This document shows positions 139 through 42,119 of a stretch of DNA of 64,000 nucleotides, piece by piece. The first letter of the stretch is position 1; the number at the start of each line of letters is the position of its first letter. The stretch is taken from the NCBI GenBank assembly GCA_045837725.1, contig JBEWZL010000306.1, forward strand, positions 124,001 through 188,000, read 5' to 3'. Position numbers and translations under genes: made by a program. The DNA comes from Vermamoeba vermiformis (Eukaryota). Below the pieces are notes generated by a model. It was given only the letters and a program-made list of their open reading frames with translations, was not told the origin of the DNA and did no database searches.

Positions 139-2365
139 CTAACTATCGCTATCACTGCTATCGCTGCTGTCACTACTATCACTACTATCACTACTATCAT
201 CATCATTCATCATTGCAGCAGTATTGATCGCCTGTGTAGTCGTATTCGTCGGTTGTGAACTGAAATCCAGTGGATCGAGCACATCCATCGGATCCGCTGG
301 TTGTGGCTGTGCCCCAACATCTTCCATATGCTGATCATTGCTATTATTGTTATGGGTTGGCTCAGGCGGTGGGATATAATCAAAGCTCATGATATCTCCC
401 GCTGTCAGTTCACTCTCCTTGGTGCCACTGCCGTGCTCGTTGTTGCCGTTAAAATTGTTGTCCACGTGCGCCGTGTCATTGTCGCTCGATCCGTTCGAAT
501 GGCTGTTCTCGAGTTCATCTCCCAAAAGTTTCGCAAAGTCTTCAAGTTCCGCGTCTTCGTTCGTCTTTTTCTTTCCCCGACCGTACGCACTGAGAGTTTT
601 TCCGCCTCGTTTCGGATGTGCCGCCGGTTGTTTCGTCTTGGCGCCGCGTCCTTTGGCGGGTTTGGGCGCAGGAGCTGTTTCTTTCTTTTTGCTCGCCGTG
701 CTGGCCTCGGGCGGTGAGACACTTGAGTGCGAGTTGACCGTGCCTGGTGGTGTCTGCACGGACTGTGGTGTCGTTGGTTCTGCCCCGCCCGGCGGTGTGA
801 TTGGTGGTTCTATAAATAGATCACATTAATCGCCCGTCACTGTCATAAAAAAACCTCTCAAACATCACGTGTCAAAAATTTTTCACACAAGATCCAAACA
901 CCATGACATCTCGATTGATAAGTATAACTGGCTTATATATATTCGTTACTATAATATAAAAATAACTTACTTCCATCTGCGCCATGTGCCCCTGGAACTC
1001 TGAGCTTGATCCGAACCTGTGAAAAAAATACGTGTCAATTACAATGTGAAAGTTAATCGAATGGTTAGGGCGCGATGATTTCCATAAAAGGCAATAGAAT
1101 CAACTCTCGGACGTACTCCACCAGCCTTTTTCGTGCTCGAGTCAGGCGTGACAGGTTGACCCCCTGCATTCGGCGACGACCCCGCGCTGTTAGTATACGG
1201 ATTATTGGGCTGCACGAGTGTGCCCTGTACTGTCCCCGTCGATGCCGCGACAGCACTGTGCTGCACGGACTTGAGTGCCGAGGCTGTGCTGCATTTAATT
1301 TGTTCCAACCGCATCGTGCCCGTCGTACTGTCAAACACGAGAATGCATTCGTTTTTGGCTGAATCATCGTACGTGCCATCAAAATGCTTAGGCTCGCCCT
1401 GGTTACGACGTTAGACAATGTTTCCTAAAAAGGAAATTGTGTTCATGAAAGAAAAAGTTTTGCAAAGTTAGGGTTGGAAAGATCTAGTAAATTCAAACTT
1501 GCCGAAACTAATAGAGATATAGTTATATATCTATAATATAGTATAATAGAAGTGCAATAGTATTATTTGCAAATTATTGTATTGTTCATAAGAGCAGTTA
1601 AGATTCAAGATTACTTAATGTATGGACACGAATTAAAATATTCCCATTCTTTCGTTATTTAATTAATTATTAAATAATAATATGATATATATGATTATTA
1701 AGGCTCAATATTTAATAGAAAAATTATTCCGATTTGATTTTTGAACGGGATCATGATTTTAGCGAATTACCGAAGCTTCCAACGATAAAAAAATTAAGTA
1801 GAGTATAAAGTATATGGAGTATATATATATTTTTCAGTATTAATTGGATTAAGCTTTGCAGTCATCGAAAATTAATAATTTGTGGCAAGATCGAGTGATT
1901 ACGATTTTAGCGGGAAGAATTTTGTCTTGTATTATTGATTATTACTATAATTATATTATTACCTGACTAGTTTGATACTGCAAATTAATATGCCGATCAC
2001 TGTTACGCCGTAGTACTGCTGGTTTTGAAAAATCAACGGATTCAGGAATAAAGCCAACTAAAAAAATCGTTAGTTCGCGTTAATAATAGGCGTAATATTA
2101 TACTTAATATTAATAGAAATATTAGAAAATATTGCTGCGGCAAAAATGAATTTGCGCCTAAAAATTAATTTCAGATTTGATAAAAAAATCAAAAAATTTC
2201 TGCCCGACTAAATAAATAACTATTCTTATTAATAAATCTGCACTACTCACATTGTAGTGAATAATATCCTGATTCTTGCGGGTTCAAAAAACTTTCGCCA
2301 AGCTCGATCTTGTATTCGACTCCATCTTGAATGAGAGCAGTTCCATTGCTTTCATTGCTGCTCAT
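139..2365 (-). CDS. EAF: ELL-associated factor (EAF1/2-like), multi-exon
   Basis: Spliced by eye: MSSNES..YKIELGESF..YYSLQ|FGFIPESVDFSKP..|GEPKHFDGTYDDSAKNECILVFDSTTGTMRLEQI, which matches the EAF N-terminal domain. C-terminus is acidic and Ser-rich (SDSSDS repeats). Confidence 0.85.
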
Positions 2366-2784
2366 GGTATAAATAGGGATATATAAATAATACTAATATT
2401 ACATGTACAACTAATATACGATTAATTTTGGCTGTGTTTCTCTGATCGACAAGCAACAACAAAAAAAAAATTATTCAGCGCGAGTCTTAACCTCACTTCA
2501 ACTCGGAAAACATTCTTAACGAACGTACATACGACTATAGCAATGTCTCTAAGCCGATTGCAAGCCGATCTGAACGGATATACTGCCAGAAATACGACCG
2601 GTCGCGTAATGCTGAGCTAAATTAGATTTCCCTTGCCTATTCTCTTGCCAATAAATTAGTGCCACAGTACTTCCATTGCAGTACGGACGAAGGTTTGAAG
2701 TGGTTGGATGGCCTGTTGCCGTTCATGAAAAGAAAGCGTTGGACTTTTTCTTTATTTTCAACTGATCGACGTACAAATAGCACA

Positions 2785-5236
2785 ATGGAGGCCTCTTTTA
2801 TTATTAATGTTGGCAGTTACGAGAAAGCTCTCTACGGATATGACGCAATGTTCAATCCGAACTACGCGAACCAGCAAAAACTCAAATCCAAAGGACAAAT
2901 GAAAGATGAGGTCGAAGAGTTCAAATTCTTATTGAGACCTATTTATGCTTATATGCCACATACTGGCTGCATTAAAGTCTTGGCTTCAAACGAAAAATAT
3001 CTGGCATCCGCTTCTACTGACGAGATGATCAAGTAAGAAAAATTAAATAATGAAATATTATGCGTTATCACGCCTATAACACGATTTCCAATCACATAAA
3101 TAATATTATCCATATTTATTATGAATTTTTAACGTTTATCGATACGATTTTTGGATACGATCGGGATCTGATCGCGTTTTATTCGTTAGAATTTACGACT
3201 TGACGAAAAGAGTCGAAGTTGGTTCACTGACACAGCACGAAGGTAAATATATGACCAATATTACCATTATTCGATCGATTTTATGTTCGAGAAATATTTT
3301 GGATCGGATTTGCTCGTTAACGAGGAACAAATTAATTGCTTAAAATATTCCTAAATAATACTCACATATTAATACTATATAGGTATGGTTACTGCTATGC
3401 AATTTTGGAAGAACAAATACTTGTTTACCGCGAGCATGGATGGAACTGTCTGTGTTTGGGTAACTAAGGACTGGGACATCGTGCAAATACTGAAACATAA
3501 GTAAGTGATATTAGCATATAAATTTATCCCATAATTTCTCGCGCGGCGAATAATTGGTGGGAGATCTGATCCACACCGCGCAAAAAATTCGAAAATTTGA
3601 CATGATGAAAAATGAATTCCTCGTTCCGAAGATGTAAAGGTGGATAATTCATTATCTGATTACAACAATATATATATATTTGCTCAAAAACGCAATGTAG
3701 CAAATTTATTTTTTTATCGATCGGATTCGCCGATCCAAAATACGGATCTAACTTCAAGTTTTTGCATTGCAATTTGTCTAATGTTATTACTTATGTATAG
3801 GGCACCTATTCTTGCGATGGCTGTTCATCCTTCAGGCAAATTGTGTCTTACTGCCGGAAACGATAAAAAAATGAAATTGTGGGACTTGCAAACAGGCAAC
3901 TGCGCGTCAACTATGCCTTTAGAACACGGTAAATAATATAATATACTATATATACATTGATATATCATGCTTAAGCTAATTTATCGCCATTCAGATCCCG
4001 ATCTTGTGATGTGGTCTCCTGCCGGCGAAACTTTTGCCGTTGTAATTAATCAACAGGTCTTAATATATTCCGCTAAGGTATGGATATTATTATAGACTTA
4101 GTATAATAATATATTCTAATGATTGAACGGTTAGACGGGCAAAGTCATTAACACCATTAAAGAACCGAAGAGAATTAACGCCATCGCTTATTTATCAGTG
4201 AGTATCGCCATAAATGTGCTATATGAGTACTAATCTATATTATTTAGGAAAAAGTTTTGGCTTCTGGTGGTGAAAACAGACAGATCAATGTTTGGCAGAT
4301 TTACGAAGGAACGAATCTGCACGTGTTGACTGGTTTCGAGAACCGTATTAAGAATTTATTTGCTATTGATAAGCCCGAAGAACAGAAACAAAAAGATGCC
4401 AAGTATCCCTATTTGATTTCGACTAGCAGCGATTGCTCGGTCAAGATCTGGGATCTCGACGAATCAACTAAAGAATCAGTCGCTGAGACTTATATTGATG
4501 ATAGTCGTATTACCTGTTTGACCTCCTCATTTGTTGTTGGTAAGTTATGGCTCTGTACTTTACTGAACAAAAACTAGATTCGGACCGATTTTTTTAGATC
4601 GCTTAAAATCTTTTCAATAGACGTTCCGTGGCCTAATATATTATTACTTTCATAGATATGCAAGTTAAAGAGAAGAAAGAAGGCGAAGAAGACTCGTCAG
4701 ATCTAAGCGAAGAAGTAAGCGAAGAAAACAAAGCTAAAAAGAACTCTAAGAAGCGAAAACGCGATCAATACGTCACCGTTGAGCAAGAAGAAGGTGATGA
4801 AGAGCAAGATGATGCCGAAGATGATGAAGATAGTGCTGATCTCGACGACGAGGATGTGGATTCGGAGATGGAGGGTCAAGTTTTTGACGCTAAAGACGTT
4901 CCTGAGCTATTAGAAGATGAACTTAGCGATGGTGATGGCAATGGAGATAATGGAGAGGATAATAACGACGATGAGGACGATGAGGAAGAAGAGATCGAGC
5001 AACCAAAAAAGATCCAGAAAAAAGTCAAGGACTTTGACGTAAAGAAGCAAAATAAGGCTAATAACAAACAAAATAAGCAGAATAACAAGGCTAAGAAGCA
5101 AAACGCCCCCGCAAACAATAATAACCAGAAAAAGAAGGTCGTTCAAAACGCAGATCAAGCGAAACAAAATAACAACAAAAAGCAAGCTCCGACCAATCAA
5201 GGCAAGCCACTCAAAGGAATTTTGAAGAAAAAATAA
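2785..5236 (+). CDS. PAK1IP1: PAK1IP1/Mak11-like WD40 60S ribosome biogenesis factor, multi-exon
   Basis: N-terminal IINVGSYEKALYGY; WD repeats HTGCIKVLASNEKYLASASTDEMIK, AVHPSGKLCLTAGNDKKMKLWDL, NRIK..ISTSSDCSVKIWD; acidic/basic tail. Confidence 0.85.
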
Positions 5237-9828: not shown

Positions 9829-10432
9829 TGTTTTTCTTTAATCTCTATGTTGAAGGCTTTACAGATTGATTTAGTGTTTAGTGCTTGTTTTGGGATCGTT
9901 TTTGGTTGTCGTTTTGAGTTTGACCAGTGTTTGGGGAGCACATCTGATATTTCGTACTCGAGCTCCTCTTCGTCCTCATCCTAATTATTTTGTTATGCCC
10001 TTCAATAATCGTTATTACAATTTAATCTTAATGCTTTGAATGTCTCCTAAGCATGAAGTATAAATTGTCGATCCAAATGGTAAAATAAACTCTAAAAAAT
10101 TCAGAAAAATACAGAATATTATTCTCTAGCATTATTACTATTTTGGTGATACATACGCTCGATATTCTCACTTCTGGGTTTATTTTGTGCAATGCTAAGT
10201 TTGTTGTAATCGAAATGGATCGTCTTGTCCTTTGTCGAGCAGGCTGGCGACCTTACAATGCCAAATATGTTTACTAGGGTAATCTACATGTGTTAGATTG
10301 CAGCCAAAAATGGCATAACTCGTTGTGTTTTACTAATGCCTGGAAAAATAAACCATGTTCGTGCCAAGAAATTCTAGACTTCGTTCGGCGTGGAAGCTTC
10401 ACAACCTATCGCGTCAACTGTAACACATACAA

Positions 10433-12799
10433 ATGGATTTTCAAGAAGTAACGCTGCAAGATGTATTCAGCAAGCGGTACATGACCGAGGACGCGTGCGT
10501 GTATCACATCTACCTGCCGCGCGATCAATCAGATGTAGCAACGTTAGAAACAAAAAGAAAAGAGTTCATGACGTATTTAAATGCGGAATATATCAAGGAT
10601 TACATTTGGCAAGACGATCCGTTTCAATTACGGATCTACAGCGTCGAACAAAGTAAACCCAGAAGCGAGAATATTGAAGGTATGTATTTATAAGGCCATA
10701 GCAACGCTTAAATTTAATATTCTGCATTTTTCTGATTTTTTTAGAATATTATTTTACTTTTCTTTGCGATCTCTCGAGACTAATTTCTTATTCAAAGACG
10801 ATTACAACCACTTATTTGGCACTACCCGATTCGGAGAAAATATAGAAGATGAATGGTTCATTGTATTCTTGTTATTTCAACTTTCAGCCAAATACCCGAA
10901 TATAATTACAAGGTAAGTCAGATCTGATCCGTTGAACACAATTATTTTTCGTTAATTTTCCTATGAGACATATCTAATATTATAAATTATAGTATTGAAG
11001 ATAATGATGGTCAATTTCTGTTGATTGAAGCAGCGGATCACATTCCTCATTGGATCAAGCCCGAAAACAGCAAGTTCCGCGTGTGGATTAACAAATCGAG
11101 TTTGAATATTATTCCGATACCACGTGATCCGATGGAGATTATGACACTGCCCGTCAAATTGACACCTGTCAGTGCAGTAGATCTGATCCAAAATCAACCG
11201 GTCTCAACGATCGCATCAGATCCGGTCCAAAAAAGCATCAAAGATCGATTAGACGAATACCCAAAAAAGGCAAGAGAATCTTTACACCATTCACGGTGTA
11301 TCGTACCGGAAAGCATTGCAAAAATTCTTCATCGCGATCCACAACTGATCGCACCAGCGGTCAACTCGTTCTTTTACAGAGACTTAGTTGCTATGCGTGC
11401 GTGCAATGTAATGGAGAAATTTAATCCAAAAAAGGAAAAAATGGTCGAATTATCGCTCAAGTTCACGCGGTGTTTGTTCGCGCAGCTGGATCGACAAAAT
11501 TTTCACGCGCCAAAACCGTTTAAAGACATCCTACCTCAAGAAAACGATCCTAAATATAAATTAGCATTATTAGGCATGAAATTGGTAAGTATAAATCTTC
11601 ATAATAATTTGTCACCGTAAAATTAACATTAATTTTCTTCAGACATGCGGTTTTGAAATTCTGTACCAAGACGGCAAGAAGAAATTATCGACATTTAATG
11701 ATGACATTATTAAAGTAAGTATATTATTAATATTATCGTAAGTTAGTGTCAGATCTAATGAAATTTTTGTAGGACTATAGTTTTGAAGACGATCGCGTGT
11801 GGATCCAGTTCAATGAAATGCTGTCAAACGAAGGATTTTACAAACAAGAACGACCCGGCTCAAAATTATTCCGAGAATTGGAGAAAAAGGCCAAATCAGA
11901 GTACATTGAAGCATTGCGTAAGAAAGACGCATCCGTGATCGAGCTCCTGGAATCAAAATCTGCTAAAGCAACTAAGAAAATGGATATTATATTGGCTCTA
12001 CCTTTTAATATGGAAGACCTTAGCGATGCGATGAAACGACCGTCGGATCCAGAAGATTGGTTGAACATTTCGCAACAGGAGGTCGACGACATTATTTCTA
12101 AGAAACAACGCGACTTAGAGAAGGCCAAGAAGTATACAAAGCAAGAGGACGACGGCGAGGATGATATGGACGATGATGAGGCTAATGTAGATGAAAACAA
12201 TTTGTTCGACTTCATCGTCAAGGGCATGAAACAATTCGGTCAGAAAATTTCAAGTTTTGAAGGCGCTGAAATGCCTGGAGAGTAAGTATTGAGTCATAAT
12301 ATTATATTATTAATGAGTATGTGTATTAATATCACTTTCTATTCTTAGTCCCGAAGACGAATTTGATATCGATACCGATGACTTTGCGAAGATGTTTCAT
12401 AAAGCAGTGCAAAGATCCAAGCAAGATATCAATAAAGCCAGTTCATCCGATGAAGACGATGAATTCTACGATGGATTCATGAACGAAGATTCTGAAGAAG
12501 ACGAGGAAGGTGACGGTGAACTGGACGATGAAGACATGAAGCAGTTAATGGCTGCTATGGATCGAGAACTGTCTAAGACGAACATTGGCAAGAGCTTCGA
12601 ACGCGTGCCCAAGGCAGCAAGACGAGCACAACAAGGCGATGATAATGACGAAGATAGCAGTGAAGACGATGAAGGTGAAGTGGATCCGCAACTCAACTTG
12701 GTGAAGAACTTCTTGGAGTCTTATGCAGCACAAGAAGGCACAGCTGGTCCTGTTTCGAACTTACTCAACGAATTGGGTCGTCGAGCACCCAAGAAATAA
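10433..12799 (+). CDS. ECD: Ecdysoneless / hSGT1 homologue, multi-exon
   Basis: FGENIEDEWFIVFLL, DNDGQFLLIEAADHIPHWIKPENSKFRVWI, PQLIAPAVNSFFYRD, LGMKL|TCGFEIL, and C-terminal NLVKNFLESYAAQEGTAGPVSNLL. Confidence 0.92.
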
Positions 12800-12915
12800 C
12801 TCGAAAATAACTTGTAAATAAACTAGTGTTAAATACCTGCAACCCCGCGAGCGTAAGGAGCACTCTTTTTTTCTGTGCACGAATGTGTTGGTTTATTGTT
12901 TGATTGTTATCGTTC

Positions 12916-14007
12916 TTATCCGCGAACAACCTTGGTGCGTCTTCGTTCAGCGCGTTCTCTTCGTCGTTGTTCCTTGGGATCCAATTCACCCTCGTCTTCC
13001 TTGGCAGCAGACTAATGATAATCGATGTTAGTTACGACTTATCAATGCGTGCGTTATCTTACTCTTGCTTGGAGCAAAGGCCAAACGATGGAGGTCCAGA
13101 TCTTGTACGTGCCAAAGACGGGGATCTGAGTGGATGTTAGAACGTATTTTTTACGAATATTATGTAAAACTTACGGCAAGATACACGAGCCAGAACCAGT
13201 TAGAGATGATAGAAGTCAATTGGACAAACCAGTTAATGTACAAAACGTCCCAGTAGTACCTACAAGCAGATCCGTTAGCAAACGCAATAAAAACTTAGTA
13301 CTAAGTTATTATAATCAACATAAGGCCAATCTATTGCCTGTAGCACGAGGCAAAAGGAAGGGAGAACGAGAGAAAGAGAAGAGGCTTGGCCAGGCAAAAA
13401 AAAAAAAAAAGGTATTGCATCGGAAGGGATTCGAACCCTTGCATCCGAAGATATTGGAGCCTTAATCCAACCCCTTAGACCAACTCGGGCACCGATGCGA
13501 TCGTTGATCCGTCGTTCAGCAAACTCAACATCCTGGCCAGATCGGTCACATGCGATGTCTTTGTTTGGCTTCTTTTCTCTTTCTCTCCTTCGTGCTACTT
13601 GCGAATACCGCAAGCTGTATGAAGTACTTACTCCATCAAGCCCTTTTGTCCCAAGTCTTCACCAGGGCTCAGCAATTCGCCAGTGGCCTCGTCAAAAGTA
13701 GGCTTTGCGTGGCCAGAGAGGGACCAGTAGCAAAACACGTTCGCGCCAACGAGAAGGAGGAAGCCAGCGTAGTCCCAAAATCCAAGCTCGCTGAACATAA
13801 TTCGGTAGCCAAGGTGAAGCACGGTCAAGGCCTTGATATTGCGGTGAGCAAATTGAAATTGTTCAAAAAAATTGAATTACCGCGTCAAAAATTCCAAATA
13901 AATGTATATTAAATAGAACATACCGAGAAACCAAGGACCATCATAATTAAAAATTTCAGTGTTTTTTGGTTCTGCTTCAGAAGTTTTTTAGCTGCTGCGT
14001 TCGCCAT
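12916..14007 (-). CDS. TMEM208: TMEM208 / SND2 (SRP-independent ER targeting), 5 exons; intron 2 (13260-13631) hosts a tRNA cassette
   Basis: Spliced: MANAAAKKLLKQNQKTL..|..AKPTFDEATGELLSPGEDLGQKGLME|YYWDVLYINWFVQLTSIISNWFWLVYLA|IPVFGTYKIW..|..RRRERAERRRTKVVRG*. Confidence 0.88.
13340..13598 (-). repeat. Intronic tRNA cassette copy 1, with complementary terminal arms
   Basis: GTAGCACGA..TCGTGCTAC ends plus purine/pyrimidine arms; homologous to 15014-15266. Confidence 0.85.
13416..13498 (-). tRNA. tRNA-Leu(AAG), intronic in TMEM208
   Basis: Acceptor stem GCATCGG/CCGATGC with discriminator A; anticodon arm TTGGA-TTAAGGC-TCCAA; long variable arm; T-loop GTTCGAATC; followed by an oligo-T run. 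Confidence 0.95.
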
Positions 14008-14171
14008 CTGTGCTTATTTGTGCTCTCCTCGTGTCTGATATGAAATATATACTGACAAAATATTACAATAGCAAAGGTCTTCTGTTGACGTCACTCGTTC
14101 GTGATCAAGTGGAAAATGCTTTGACCGTTTTTTTATCGTGTTTTACCACCCAACTACGTGAACCACCACAA
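14008..14171. promoter_or_regulatory. Probable bidirectional promoter between TMEM208 and TRM6
   Basis: 164 bp between divergent start codons; TGACGTCA (CRE-type) palindrome at 14086-14093. Confidence 0.5.
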
Positions 14172-16321
14172 ATGGCAGAAAGTACAGAAGTTAATATTAC
14201 ACCAGTTCAAATACCACCCCAAGAGGATAATAAGTCTGAGATCAAGGTGGATTCGACGGATTGCGTCAAAGAAAATGATTCGGTTATCTTGCTAGAAAAT
14301 GGCCAAAAATACGCCGTCGTGCGCATATCGAAAAAAGCGTAAGTTATTAAGAAATCATCGTGTTCTGAACGAGGCATATTTAATTATGAATTTTTTATTG
14401 ATTTTTTCTCTAGTCAAACGAGGATCGGCAAACAACGCTGTAACCTCGAGCCCTTAATTGGTGCTCCATATGGAACATATTTTGAAGCACGAGCTGGCAA
14501 GCTTTACAAGTTGGATAAAAAACCAGAACTGTCGCTTTCGTTAGCCATTCCAGGTACGCTCTTACTATCATTTTCTATTTGCCCTACAAATTATGTTAAC
14601 GATCATATGAAGACACTATGGCTGAAGACGGTCAAACGAAGAAGAACAATAAAGAACTTGTTGACGATAACAAAGCACAAGGATTATCAGCCGAACAAAT
14701 CACAGAAATGAAGAAGCAAGGTGTCGGCGGCGAATCGATCATTCAAGCGTTAATTCAAAACTCGAGCTCATTCCAAAACAAGACTGAGTTCTCACAACAG
14801 AAATATATCAAGAAGAAGCAAGAGAAGTACGTACCACTTCGTGCCTGACATAAATTACTCACGCGTTGATCGTGCACAGATATCTTCATTACATCGAAGT
14901 CTTGCCGCCAACAACACAGACACTCACTAAAGTTTACTTCACGAAAGCACCCTCTAAGATATGGTAAGCCTCGTAAAAGTGTTAATCGCGATGCTCGTGC
15001 ACGGTATTCGAAAGTAGCACGAAGGAGAGAAAGGGAAAAGAAGACAAACAAAGACACTGCATGCGACCGATCTGGCCAGGATGTTGAGTTTGCTTGACGA
15101 CGGATCAACGATCGCATCGGTGCCCGAGTTGGTCTAAGGGGTTGGATTAAGGCTCCAATATCTTCGGATGCAAGGGTTCGAATCCCTTCCGATGCAATAC
15201 CTTTTTTATTTTTTGACCTTGCCAAGTCTCTTCTCTTTCTCTCGTACTCCCTTTACCTCGTGCTACGATTGACTAATCCCGTTTTTAGTTTCTTGCGCTT
15301 AGATTCCGTGAGTTACCTGCTTTCCATGGCTGAAATCCGATCCAAAAACCAGATTCTCGTTGTAGAGGATGCTATGGGTCTTATTGTTGGCTCAGCGGCT
15401 CAACGATTGAACGGTAAGTCGATCTATATTTCCGCATTGCAATCGCTAAAAGCGGAGAGCTCAGGTCAAGGACGGATCATCAACTGTTTCCTCGGCCAAT
15501 CGCCAAATACTCCTATTGCCAGTATGTTCAATTTGAGCAAAGAACATGCGAGCGTCATCGAGCACATTTCTTTCAAACGCGTACACGAGCTCGCTTTTGG
15601 AGATCAAGCGGCACCCGTCGAGATCAAGGAAGAAGAGCCCGAGGTTAAGATCGAGGACATGCAAGTGGAAAAGAACCCAGAAGAAGAAGAGAATATCGAT
15701 ATTGAAGAGCCACATGAAGTGCAAGGTAAGTTTTATGTGGGAAACGTTTCCCTTTTATGGTAAGATCTTAACCCACGTTTGACAGAAGGTCAAGAAAAGA
15801 ACAACACCGCAACCCGAGAAAGCAAACAAAAGGAGACTGAAGAACATTTGTTCGAAGGAGCTGATTCCCTGATTATTGCTACAACGCGCGTTGACGTAAA
15901 ATCATTGCTTCAAGCCACGTACCCTTTCTTAGTACCAGGCCAACCGTTCAGCATATATTCACCTTATATTGAAGTAAGCTATCATTGCCTCTTATAATCA
16001 ATGCTAATCGATATTATCTAGCCTCTTGCCGTCTGTCACCAATGGCTGAAAGAGTCCGATACCGCGTTGAACGTAACTTTAGGCGAAACATTTTACCGAG
16101 AATACCAGGTACGTCATATAATCTTACTACATGAATTATGCGTTCAAGGACTGGAATAATTAAGTATACAGGTATTGCCGCAACGCACGCATCCTTTAAT
16201 GCGAATTCCCGCGACTGGAGGTTATGTTCTTACGGGCACGAAGATAATTAATAATCCGCCACCAGCTGCGAATACAAACGAAGCCGCATCGGAGCCGAAG
16301 CAAAAGAAACAAAAAGTCTGA
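14172..16321 (+). CDS. TRM6: tRNA m1A58 methyltransferase non-catalytic subunit (Gcd10/TRMT6), multi-exon; intron 14964-15288 hosts a tRNA cassette
   Basis: LIGAPYGTYFE, NNKELVDDNKAQGLSAEQITEMK, IIQALIQNSSSFQNKTEFSQQKYIKKK, KIC|FLRLDS, REYQ|VLPQRTHPLM. Confidence 0.92.
15014..15266 (+). repeat. Intronic tRNA cassette copy 2, with complementary terminal arms
   Basis: GTAGCACGAAGGAGAGAAAGGGAAAAG ... CTTCTCTTTCTCTC..CCTCGTGCTAC. Confidence 0.85.
15114..15196 (+). tRNA. tRNA-Leu(AAG), intronic in TRM6
   Basis: Identical by eye to the 13416-13498 copy; anticodon AAG at 15149-15151; T6 terminator follows. Confidence 0.95.
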
Positions 16322-32228: not shown

Positions 32229-35067
32229 ATGGATAACGTAAGTTACAAGCATAGAGTAACGTTGGGAATTAAATTAGAATTTCAATTATCGATTTTTAGT
32301 TCTCTTTCAACAATAATTATGATTTAATAATTATGAATCTTATAGTAAAATGATACGATTAAATATGAAGCTCAATTAACACTTAATATATTTTTTTAAA
32401 GATATTTTTGGATGTCGCCGTCGACCTCGAGCTAGACGCTGTTAAATTAGAAGAATTAGATATCAAGGATCAAATTAGACAAAATATTGCAGATTTATTT
32501 CCCGAAGCTCCAGGAGTAACAGAAGCAATCGAAAACACGATCCAAGTTGAGCCAGGAAGAACTCTGTTGCACAAGAACATGATGCATTATTTGACTCTCG
32601 CGTGGTACAATCACTTTTCAGTGGTGATATCGCCTGACATGATCTTTTACACGATCTTGTGCGTGTTGGCAGAAACGATCAAAACAGAACCAGAGGCGTA
32701 TCGACATTTGTTCACCGATAGCACTGAGAAGAAAGAGATAATAACAGTTTCAAATAATAATGCGCAGCTAGATCTCAATCAAGTTATTTCTGGTAAGTTC
32801 AAGCAGTGCATCCGAATCCAACCGATTTTTAACTTCTTTTTACGAATAGCTTTATCGAAAAATATTGCTATCGATGCATCGCTATTTACTGCAGAGTTTT
32901 CAACGACCAATAGCGAGTCTCGTCTTGCGATCCAAGCTGCTTTTTGTGACGCCATGTCGCCTTACTATTATTATTCTCGATCACGCTGCGGAATTCCCCG
33001 TATAAAAGTATTGGGAACAAAACAAGACTGGAATACATTGGAAAAGAAGCTTTACAGAATGGCCACCGAAGTTTTTAACAGCGCGATTGGATCGGAGAAA
33101 AAAGAACAGAGATCGCTTGCCAAGTATTTGAACGAAGTTATTGAAATCGTGCAAAAGATTCAAACAGATAACACAAAGGAGTTCTGGAAAGAGATGTATC
33201 AAATCGACAAATGCAGATCCGGTCACACAGCCTTCGTCAGAGGATGGATCAACAAGTTGTACAACAGTGGCCAGGGCAATGATTTCTACAACTATGAACC
33301 ACATATTTCAATCGTATCATACAAGGACATTGATAGTCAAAAAGAATACGAACTGCGTTGTGGTTTGTTGTTCAGTTCGATCGAACAAGACGCATCTGAA
33401 CTTGACCTCAAATATCCTTGGTAAGTAAATTGAGTATATATCACTTAGTATAGTCTAATGATATCATCGTTATTAGGTTGGTCCCTCACTTCGCTCACAT
33501 TGTTCTTGACAAAAGTGTGAAAATGACAGTTGAACAGTACAAGAATTACATCGACAAAGCACTGAACGGAGAGGACTACGCGGTATTCCGAGACTTTTTT
33601 GACGTTCTAAAAGACGATCCTATCTTCCTGGTGTCGGGTGATTTTGAAAACAAAAAACAGCGTCTTGAAATCATTGGCAGACAACTCGACTATTGGACTG
33701 CGCATCCGGATCTGATCACCGAAATTGACTTTTCAGCAACAAAATTTGAGCCTATATTTTCAACGTATCGAGAGTATGATTTTGGTTCAGCCATGGAAGA
33801 GCTTCTGTCAAAAATGAAGCAATGTTTTGACACGTGTCAAATCAGATCTGTCAATCTCGGCAACTCCGATATATTGACTCCATATGAAGAGAAGATAGTT
33901 AAACTTCTCGTTGGAAATGCAAATATAGAAGAATTGACACTGGTCGGTTATGACGAAGTTACCAACAGCCCTGCAATTACCTCACTCTGCCTGCTACTTT
34001 CAGACCCGCAATGCCGATTGAAATCGCTCAAATTAACTGGAAGACCAATCAAAGATCATAGCCTTGCCCTCTCAAAGGCATTACTGTCTATGAAGAGCCC
34101 TTTAGAAAAAATCGAGTTGGCCGGCGTGGTTGACAATGAGCTCGCAGACGCGATTTTTGAACTTGCCACAAACCGCTCTTTAAAACGTCTGTATTGCAAC
34201 TCGAGCGATAATATCGAAGCAAATAAGAAGATTTTATTGGCCATTGCAGCTTCTCGAACTTTAGAAGACACTCAAATATTCAGCATTGGATCGGAAGGGC
34301 CGAAAGACGTTTTCGAAGAATTGGCGAAGAATTTACCTCAGAATACAACCTTGGCGACATTGACGGTCGTTGGACGTGATTATGACCACGAGTTACTGAA
34401 TCGACTATTGAGCATTCCTTCGTTGCGAAAACTCGATCTGGAGCCATCAACCGACTTTGGATTCTTATCAAACACACCTAACATACAATCTTTAAAAGTA
34501 CATGGAAGTAATAGTAGATTAGTGGAAATTTTACAAAGTGACACCTGTCAACTTCAACACTTGGAGTTTTGCACGAACATCGCGTTCCTTGATGAGTTCG
34601 GTGCTGGTTTGCTGAAGAACATGTCTTTGCAAAAACTGGATCTGTCCGTGACCAAAGAGAAGAACGCAATTCCGAACAAATTCGGCGAATTGCTTGCGAC
34701 AGCATTGGCGAACCAACTTCCGCTGCGAGAATTGAAAACCAACGATTATTTGCAGATCGGATCTGATGCGATGGAAAAGATTGTCAAAGCGATAATTCAT
34801 CATCCATATTTGGAAGTGCTTGAAGTTGGATCGTCGGAAGTCGTCTCCGAACAAGGCATGGAGAGCCTCATTGAACTCGTCAAGACCAACACGACTCTCA
34901 AAAAATTCTATATTTTCAACTACTACGCTAGATCGCAGTGCACATGGACTGAAGACCAAAAGAAACGGTTAATCGAGGCACTGGAACAAAGTGACACGTT
35001 GACAGGATTTTACACCACGGGAGTGTGGATCTCTGAATACAAGTTGAAAAACGAGCCTGAATTTTAA
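32229..35067 (+). CDS. DUF4419 + RNI-type leucine-rich repeat fusion protein, copy A1
   Basis: AWYNHFSVVISPDMIFYTIL..EAYRHLF, CGIPRIKVLGTKQDW and FVRGWI are DUF4419-type motifs. Intron 33421-33476 joins them to an LxxLxL-repeat exon (CRLKSLKL, NMSLQKLDL, NTTLKKF). Confidence 0.75.
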
Positions 35068-41141: not shown

Positions 41142-42119
41142 ATGTTGAATCGCTTGTTATCATTTGCCGTACTGCTGTTGGTGCTCTCTCACATCTGCTT
41201 CGTTGAGAGCAAATGTGCTGACACCTGTACCTTATCACCTGAAGCTGTCCTTGGTCCTTATTACGTCGATCAAATGCTCGTTCGACAAAATATTACGTAA
41301 GTGATGCAAAGAAATTTCAAGTTTTTATCGTTGCTAACCCGTGGATCCAGCGAGGGCAACGAAGGAGTGCCATTGACTTTGAAGATTACCGTAGTCGATA
41401 CTAACACGTGCCAGCCTATTAAATGGGCAGCAGTCGATATTTGGCACTGCAACTCTCAAGGAGTCTATTCTGGCTTCGCTGCCGAGAACACTGCTGGAGA
41501 GACTTTTTTCCGCGGCATCCAGTTCACTGACGACAATGGCGAAGCAACCATTGACACTATCTACCCCGGTTGGTACAGCGGTCGTGTTACTCACATCCAC
41601 GTCAAGGTCCACATCAACACTACAGTCGACTCTGACGACACTTTGGCTACTGATGGTCACGTGTCCTTTGTCGGTCAATTCTTTTTCAACGACACCATCA
41701 CCAACGAAGTCGGCGAGCTCTATCCGTACAATCAGCACTCATCTGTTGCCAAGACGCCTTTAGAAGATGACAGCATCTTCACTACTTACGACGGTGAAGA
41801 CACGATGCTCAACCTCACTTTGATTGATGCCTCGAAGGGCTACTACGGCGGTGTTCTCGCTCAAATCAAGCTTGGCGTGGACTCGTTGGGCACTACTTCC
41901 GTGTCGCCTGCTGGTAACGCTGGTGGCAATCAACCGCCCGGCACTAACGGTGGTATGCCGCCTAACGGTCCTGGTGGGGCTCCTAGTTATGATTCTACTC
42001 CCACAGTCACTGCTCCTACTACGACCACTACTAACACAACTTCTCAAGTTTCCACCGCAACGATGATGTACTTTGCTGCCTACGTCGGAATTTTTACCGT
42101 TATTGTTGCCATGATGTAA
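41142..42119 (+). CDS. Secreted intradiol ring-cleavage dioxygenase-like protein 1 (GPI-like tail)
   Basis: Signal peptide; GPYY, VDIWHCNSQGVYS, RGIQFTDDNG, TIYPGWYSGRVTHIHVKVH. Confidence 0.88.

Follow-up and report, generated by a model that had tools for sequence, protein, structure and literature searches.

Two identical leucine transfer RNA (tRNA) genes, tRNA-Leu(AAG), lie in a 64,000-nucleotide (nt) stretch of Vermamoeba vermiformis DNA (contig JBEWZL010000306.1, positions 124,001 to 188,000 of the forward strand; this whole stretch is called the window, and position 1 is its first letter). Each tRNA gene sits in an intron of one of two neighboring, divergently transcribed genes, TMEM208 and TRM6, and each is enclosed by a pair of complementary arms. 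The window is eukaryotic, with approximately 40% G+C and short GT-AG introns. The interpretation that we favor, with a probability of about 0.5, is that a tRNA-Leu(AAG) gene flanked by a foldback was duplicated locally, in inverted orientation and without a transposase, that both tRNA genes are under selection, and that the arms probably make the insert tolerable.

In the proposed course of events, one segment of ~265–271 bp, comprising the tRNA gene with 112 nt upstream and 70–76 nt downstream, would have been copied from intron to intron across 1.4 kb in inverted orientation, by template switching or break repair rather than by cut-and-paste transposition. The result would be two working paralogous tRNA-Leu(AAG) genes, each nested in the sense direction in an intron of TMEM208 or TRM6. 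The copied segment would already have contained the predicted foldback, in which a 13-bp purine/pyrimidine helix accompanies a perfect 9-bp helix. Within the precursor messenger RNA, the foldback is predicted to close the 253–259-nt insert off as a side branch, leaving paths of 72 and 113 nt, close to the 49–92 nt of the neighboring introns. The arms are best regarded as permissive, the probable reason why a genome of short introns can tolerate so large an insert, rather than as having a proven selected function. That the duplication was local is suggested by the presence of two copies in the window, 1.4 kb apart and inverted, by the absence of a target-site duplication at either copy, and by the asymmetric ends of the homology.

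The host introns and the duplicated unit

The hosts are recognizable from single-exon translations, which match the Pfam family TMEM208_SND2 (PF05620) on the minus strand (2.1e-11, 5e-05, and 4.4e-06) and the family Gcd10p (PF04189; the TRM6 family) on the plus strand (8.6e-23 and 1.2e-07). Reads or contigs of four public runs were aligned to positions 12900–15700 of the window. Run X5 contributes eight contigs, two at least 99% alike and six 95–99% alike to the window; its assignment as an RNA run is a guess, and its contigs behave as complementary DNA, since they lack nine introns. The raw RNA runs X21 and X23 bear the same species label as the window, yet are only 90–95% alike to it. DNA run X1 contains 0.55 of the sampled words of the stretch, with some contigs filtered out, and contributes 43 contigs aligned at a likeness of at least 88%.

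TMEM208/SND2 intron 2 (13260–13631, minus strand; 372 nt, GT..AG, phase 2) carries copy 1 of the duplicated unit. Its removal is seen as the joint 13256>13629 (372 nt skipped, cut +3) in an X5 contig and in raw RNA reads, three from X21 and four from X23. TRM6/Gcd10 intron 4 (14964–15288, plus strand; 325 nt, GT..AG, phase 2) carries copy 2. The corresponding joint, 14962>15288 (325 nt skipped, cut +1), is present in an X5 contig, and 11 X23 reads continue from 14963 into the diverged next exon. Both host introns are genuinely spliced, and the lengths of 325 and 372 nt given in an earlier note on this DNA are confirmed by the two joints. The remaining seven introns of TMEM208 and TRM6 measure 49–92 nt, such that the two host introns are 4–7 times longer.

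In both introns, the homologous unit includes neither the splice sites nor the likely branch motif, in agreement with the claim of the earlier note that these signals are specific to each copy. In TRM6, we take CTAAT at 15273–15277 (plus strand), 6 nt past the end of the unit, to be the branch motif; in TMEM208, the branch motif is presumably one of two candidates located toward the 3′ end, GCTAAC or TACTAAG. Both assignments follow the branch-point consensus. Without the unit (265 and 271 nt), 60 nt of the TRM6 intron and 101 nt of the TMEM208 intron remain. As these lengths are within or near the range of 49–92 nt, the unit looks like an insert into ordinary introns.

Pairwise alignment and an inverted-repeat search place copy 1 at 13340–13610 (minus strand; 271 nt, including a 12-nt left extension) and copy 2 at 15002–15266 (plus strand; 265 nt). 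The copies are mutually inverted and are 96% complementary over a core of 213 nt, and each is sense to its host gene. Alignment, spliced joints, and Pfam matches together uphold the description of a ~255-bp unit, inverted and sense, in TMEM208 intron 2 and in an intron of TRM6. Read in the direction of the tRNA, the unit opens with CGGTATTCGMAA, followed by the 9-mer GTAGCACGA, a 21-nt purine arm, a leader of ~70 nt, the 83-nt tRNA gene, and ATACC. A run of T15 in copy 1 or T6AT6 in copy 2 comes next, followed by ~15 nt, a 17-nt pyrimidine arm, a pyrimidine-rich stretch of 14–19 nt, and the 9-mer TCGTGCTAC.

The 9-mers, located by word count, form a perfect terminal inverted repeat, as had been claimed. 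The left 9-mer GTAGCACGA is at 13590–13598 in copy 1 (minus strand) and at 15014–15022 in copy 2 (plus strand), and the right 9-mer TCGTGCTAC is at 13340–13348 in copy 1 (minus strand) and at 15258–15266 in copy 2 (plus strand). In copy 2, the two are also paired with each other in the fold, with a probability of 0.89–1.0. The GTAGCACGA 9-mer occurs four times in the 64 kb, against a chance expectation of 0.35, and every occurrence is a unit end; a count of four is reached in none of 100 shuffles. Measured from one terminal repeat to the other, the element is 259 nt long in copy 1 and 253 nt in copy 2, and an alignment of the arms with each other as imperfect inverted repeats spans ~31–42 nt. 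The purine arm of copy 1 occupies 13569–13589 and its pyrimidine arm, found by inverted-repeat search and fold, 13364–13384 (both minus strand); 13576–13587 pairs with 13368–13379 in the minimum free energy fold. In copy 2, the folded helix strands are 15025–15041 (purine arm) and 15227–15243 (pyrimidine arm; both plus strand), with 13 bp between 15025–15037 and 15231–15243 and a further 3 bp at 15039–15041. The earlier note had the homology end just outside of the arms on both sides, which calls for a correction: on the right it ends exactly at the 9-mer, and on the left it extends 12–15 nt past the 9-mer, through CGGTATTCGMAA.

ARAGORN finds exactly two tRNAs in the window, both tRNA-Leu(AAG), at 13416–13498 (copy 1, minus strand) and 15114–15196 (copy 2, plus strand), each wholly inside a spliced intron of an RNA polymerase II (Pol II) gene. 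Each scores 55.6 bits against Rfam RF00005 (gathering threshold 29). The T15 run of copy 1 (13396–13410, minus strand) begins 5 nt 3′ of the tRNA and is similar to an RNA polymerase III (Pol III) terminator; the T6AT6 run of copy 2 (15202–15214, plus strand) is likewise 5 nt 3′ of its tRNA. The identical tRNAs and the oligo-T runs reported earlier are hence both found, with agreement at 83 of 83 positions. Within the T arm, GGTTCGAATCC agrees with the B-box consensus. Given this match and the T run 5 nt downstream, each tRNA gene is most likely transcribed independently by Pol III. Pol II reads through the unit, and the whole intron is then removed by ordinary GT-AG splicing at the sites outside of it.

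Comparison of the copies points to constraint on the tRNA genes. None of the 83 positions of the tRNA bodies differs, compared with 13 substitutions in ~175 aligned positions and three indels in the rest of the unit. At the flank rate, the probability of observing 0/83 is 0.0017; both tRNA genes are therefore constrained and most likely functional. An Rfam search of 13200–15350 (E ≤ 1) gives no match for the leader; the other matches are weak ones antisense to the tRNAs (Plastid-ycf2) and snoR121 at E = 0.98. A tRNA-derived short interspersed element and a dicistronic gene for a tRNA and a small nucleolar RNA (snoRNA) were both considered and rejected: the tRNA is intact, and the T run is directly 3′ of it. 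The unit is covered by few RNA reads, all from a strain that is only 90–95% alike to the window, a likeness at which low or zero depth over the unit or its arms is uninformative on intron retention, tRNA expression, and presence of the unit.

Complementary arms and host splicing

The pairing between the two ends of the unit was evaluated as the duplex energy between the first 30 nt and the last 49 nt of the element, taken from terminal repeat to terminal repeat. The end-to-end duplex amounts to −34.4 kcal/mol in copy 2 and −33.7 kcal/mol in copy 1. In 4903 other 253-nt segments of the window, taken on both strands, the mean is −10.5 (standard deviation 4.0) and the minimum is −27.5, and none of the 4903 is as stable as the units. 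The complementarity of the arms is far beyond chance. Shuffling one arm did not provide a useful control, as the pyrimidine arm pairs with any strand rich in purines, and the window-wide control was used instead.

Folding of the complete introns gives similar, though not identical, pictures for the two copies. In the TRM6 intron, the 9-bp helix (15014–15022 with 15258–15266) and the 13-bp helix (15025–15037 with 15231–15243) both have a predicted probability of ~1.0. In the TMEM208 intron, the 13-bp purine/pyrimidine helix also reaches ~1.0, bearing out the claimed complementarity of the arms, but the 9-bp helix is predicted at ~0.2 only, owing to a competing local hairpin. As the earlier note observed, the A-to-G change in the left arm of copy 2 retains a G-U pair; in the minimum free energy folds, G15034–U15234 of copy 2 corresponds to A13578–U13377 of copy 1. 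The folding z-scores of the whole introns, −0.94 and −1.68, are unremarkable.

Whatever the origin of the unit, and compatibly with the other origins considered here, the arms could now be selected as a zipper-type intron stem, a reading that we find possible but doubtful. In yeast, such stems are well established as aids to splicing, with RPS17B and RPL7B as cases in Saccharomyces cerevisiae (PMC12350175, PMC2536676, PMC12311795). The rules for zipper stems, as set out in PMC12350175, include at least 6 bp, a stem end at least 20 nt before the branch point, and linkers that total 42–85 nt. In silico, the 9-bp and 13-bp helices start 50 nt into the TRM6 intron and 33 nt into the TMEM208 intron. 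In TMEM208, the 20-nt rule is respected for either candidate branch motif, and the linkers total ~59 or 87 nt according to the motif chosen, and in the predicted fold its arms can satisfy the yeast rules. The outer helix of TRM6 extends to 15266, which leaves 6 nt to CTAAT and is inside the 20-nt exclusion (PMC12350175), with a linker total of ~50 nt, whereas the inner helix, ending at 15243, respects the 20-nt rule with a linker of ~90 nt. The present case further differs from the S. cerevisiae stems in that the loop is a whole Pol III gene, the host is not a budding yeast, and the helices are predicted.

In favor of a selected stem are the lengths of the host introns, 325 and 372 nt next to seven others of 49–92 nt, the predicted helices at ~1.0, and the absence of both introns from the spliced X5 contigs, with a depth of 0 over most of each. 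In addition, the sole difference in the arms keeps its pairing, and helix positions differ between the copies at 1 of 50, compared with 12 of 125 other non-tRNA positions. This last comparison leans toward arms that have been kept but does not reach significance (Fisher p = 0.11). The unremarkable z-scores, the ~0.2 of the TMEM208 9-bp helix, and the position of the TRM6 outer helix all speak against a selected stem. So, tentatively, does one X1 contig that breaks at 15214. This contig matches through the tRNA and T6AT6 and then resembles the last 16 nt of the unit; in what is a 30-nt consensus only, the pyrimidine arm is missing and the right 9-mer is changed. It may represent an arm-less allele or a third copy and, if an allele, would make the arms dispensable. 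The suggestion of the earlier note that the arms loop out the Pol III gene is supported only as a physical possibility in the predicted folds, and its effective lengths of 72 and 113 nt are arithmetically correct; selection on the arms finds no significant support (p = 0.11), and in TRM6 the 20-nt rule is broken. Were the arms needed for splicing, the unit would be a natural example of a nested Pol III gene equipped with a splicing aid of its own, and the two copies would provide a clean system for studying how short-intron spliceosomes handle long inserts.

Origin of the two copies

The unit resembles a small foldback element or miniature inverted-repeat transposable element (MITE) in its small size, terminal inverted repeats, and intronic location, and the earlier note had offered a MITE-like mobile cassette as an alternative. 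Such an element, carrying a tRNA gene as cargo, would have transposed between introns and possibly elsewhere in the genome. The perfect 9-bp terminal inverted repeat found solely at the four unit ends, the imperfect inverted repeats of ~31–42 nt, the size of 253–259 bp, the exact right boundary, and an end-to-end pairing unmatched in the 4903 control segments are all consistent with this origin. We nevertheless judge it unlikely. No target-site duplication is present at either copy (flanks ..CGAAA / GATTG.. and ..CGCAA / AGGCA..), the homology ends are asymmetric, with 12–15 nt shared outside of the left repeat, and the cargo is a most likely functional tRNA gene, all unlike MITEs and foldback DNA transposons. 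We know of no transposon superfamily that the features of the unit fit, which we also count against this origin. Only two copies are present as far as could be seen: sensitive blastn with the non-tRNA parts of the unit finds no third copy in the 64-kb window.

Further copies were also sought in other collections. Among the 43 X1 contigs, aligned at a likeness of at least 88%, no further copy of the unit is found and no contig breaks at the unit ends, as the loose ends of a copy elsewhere would. In metagenome contigs, a 20-nt arm query gives a single match, at 1755–1774 (minus strand) of contig L001, which shares 23–24 nt with the left arm (AAAGTAGCACGAAGGAGAGAAAG) and contains neither the tRNA nor the right arm. 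L001 is a GC-rich, eukaryote-like contig with microsatellites, is otherwise unrelated, and was rejected as a relative, the match being taken as a chance purine-rich word. Prokaryotic genome contigs give 0 matches for the arm and 0 for the 5′ part of the tRNA, and viral contigs give 0 for a 30-nt leader pattern and 0 for the 5′ part of the tRNA; a eukaryote is not expected in either collection. The results from the metagenome, prokaryotic, and viral collections count only slightly against a mobile element, since these collections are unlikely to contain this eukaryote.

The depth of the X1 contigs tells a similar story for the arms and a different one for the tRNA. Contigs that run from unique exon through arm and leader have a depth of 219–306, and those on unique sequence outside of the units have a depth of 413–567, such that the depth of arm and leader is at or below that of unique sequence. 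The summed depth over the tRNA bins, by contrast, is 1087–4522; such depths are not copy numbers, but they suggest that the tRNA itself is multi-copy. A second X1 contig over 14898–15132 differs from the window by 24 differences and one gap in 234 nt (~10%) and carries arm and leader. Its depth, 299.9, is nearly that of the exact contig, 305.6, and the two have their start position in common. This ~10% diverged version of the TRM6 locus is a haplotype or a co-occurring strain with arm and leader in the intron. As a separate observation, the two versions of equal depth in X1, together with the likeness of 90–95% of X21 and X23, suggest highly divergent haplotypes or mixed strains.

Several observations weigh against a plain local duplication. 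The right end of the homology is exactly at the tip of the perfect 9-bp terminal inverted repeat; it thus resembles a transposon end, and a random breakpoint would hit this point only by a strange coincidence. The two inserts are both intronic and sense to their hosts, and for the orientation alone ~1 in 4 would be expected. X1 copies less than 88% alike would escape the alignment. Only two of the 43 X1 contigs lie partly on the stretch, and these break beside the tRNA rather than at unit ends, at 15214, as described above, and at 15105; the contig breaking at 15105 has other upstream sequence that shares two short motifs, GGCCAGG and GACGAC, with the leader, and a more diverged relative of the unit is conceivable from it. 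The lean of the helix positions toward conservation points in the same direction. In favor of a local duplication, the window contains a second local inverted duplication, 10080–10227 versus 10610–10757, with arms of ~150 nt, 85% column identity, and a separation of ~380 nt, which shows that such events happen here. The earlier note named a lack of other copies and arms no better conserved than neutral intron sequence among the signs of a simple local duplication, and the data lean that way. If only a local duplication is involved, the pair represents ordinary growth of a tRNA family and ordinary nesting of genes in a compact eukaryotic genome.

A bolder combination of these ideas is an "intron-safe" mobile tRNA cassette, that is, a foldback element with a Pol III gene whose arms hide its length from the spliceosome. 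We regard this as very unlikely; if true, tRNA genes could spread among the short introns of a compact genome and leave the host genes unharmed. That two tRNA genes entered the introns independently long ago and were homogenized by gene conversion, with the unit ends as the ends of conversion tracts, is scarcely credible: the ~10% diverged TRM6-intron version with arm and leader, set against a flank difference of ~7% between the copies, does suggest that the copy-2 insertion may be older than the divergence between the copies implies, but a conversion tract is not expected to end just where a perfect terminal inverted repeat has its tip, a copying mechanism is still required if one tRNA entered twice, each time with the same foldback, and the differences between the copies are scattered evenly along both flanks rather than in tract-like blocks.

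Related systems and genomic context

Nested Pol III genes are known from Caenorhabditis elegans, in which 44–47% of the tRNA genes are intronic and 56% of these are in the orientation of the host (PMC4999229). Similar to these, the tRNA genes described here are intronic. Unlike the C. elegans case, they are part of a foldback cassette, one copy of which is present in each of two adjacent divergent genes whose other introns are shorter than 100 nt. The available part of the C. elegans account carries no mention of flanking complementary arms (PMC4999229). Likewise, as far as the available texts go, searches of the open-access literature gave no report of tRNA genes set between complementary arms in spliceosomal introns.

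Introners are a further case of a repeated element in the introns of unrelated genes, as is the unit described here (PMC9860276, PMC12130899, PMC11282704). Introners create the intron and make up essentially all of it, whereas here the splice sites are outside of the unit and an intron of normal size remains. An Introner reading was rejected on this account, with splice sites and branch motifs outside of the unit and 60 and 101 nt of copy-specific intron left. Intronic snoRNAs and nuclear intronic look-alikes of mitochondrial tRNAs are comparable in that a structured small RNA may, by its structure or by pairing, influence the splicing of its host (PMC10324135, PMC7722341). Those cases concern mammalian snoRNAs and homologues of mitochondrial tRNAs, whereas the present one involves a canonical tRNA gene of the cytosolic type with separate arms.

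The inverted pair flanks the promoter that the two hosts share, together with their 5′ exons, and could therefore serve as the substrate of a damaging inversion. TMEM208 and TRM6 have divergent start codons (14007 and 14172) with 164 nt between them, which constitutes a very compact bidirectional promoter region. Recombination between the units would invert 13611–15001 and, as both host introns are in phase 2, would give in-frame TMEM208/TRM6 chimeras. No inversion joint between the units was seen among the reads and contigs, which cannot span the 265-nt repeats.

In the second inverted duplication of the window, the 10610–10757 arm is the end of the first exon of a gene together with the start of its intron, and the 10080–10227 arm, located upstream of the start codon of that gene, is an inverted copy that has decayed and contains stop codons. 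Across the window, 14 of the 16 open frames of at least 250 amino acids have no Pfam family at E ≤ 1e-5, and protein collections seem to contain little from this organism or its kin. The two exceptions are a frame matching Dioxygenase_C (41301–42116) and one matching DUF4419 (32387–33421), the closest database relative of the latter being 68% identical.

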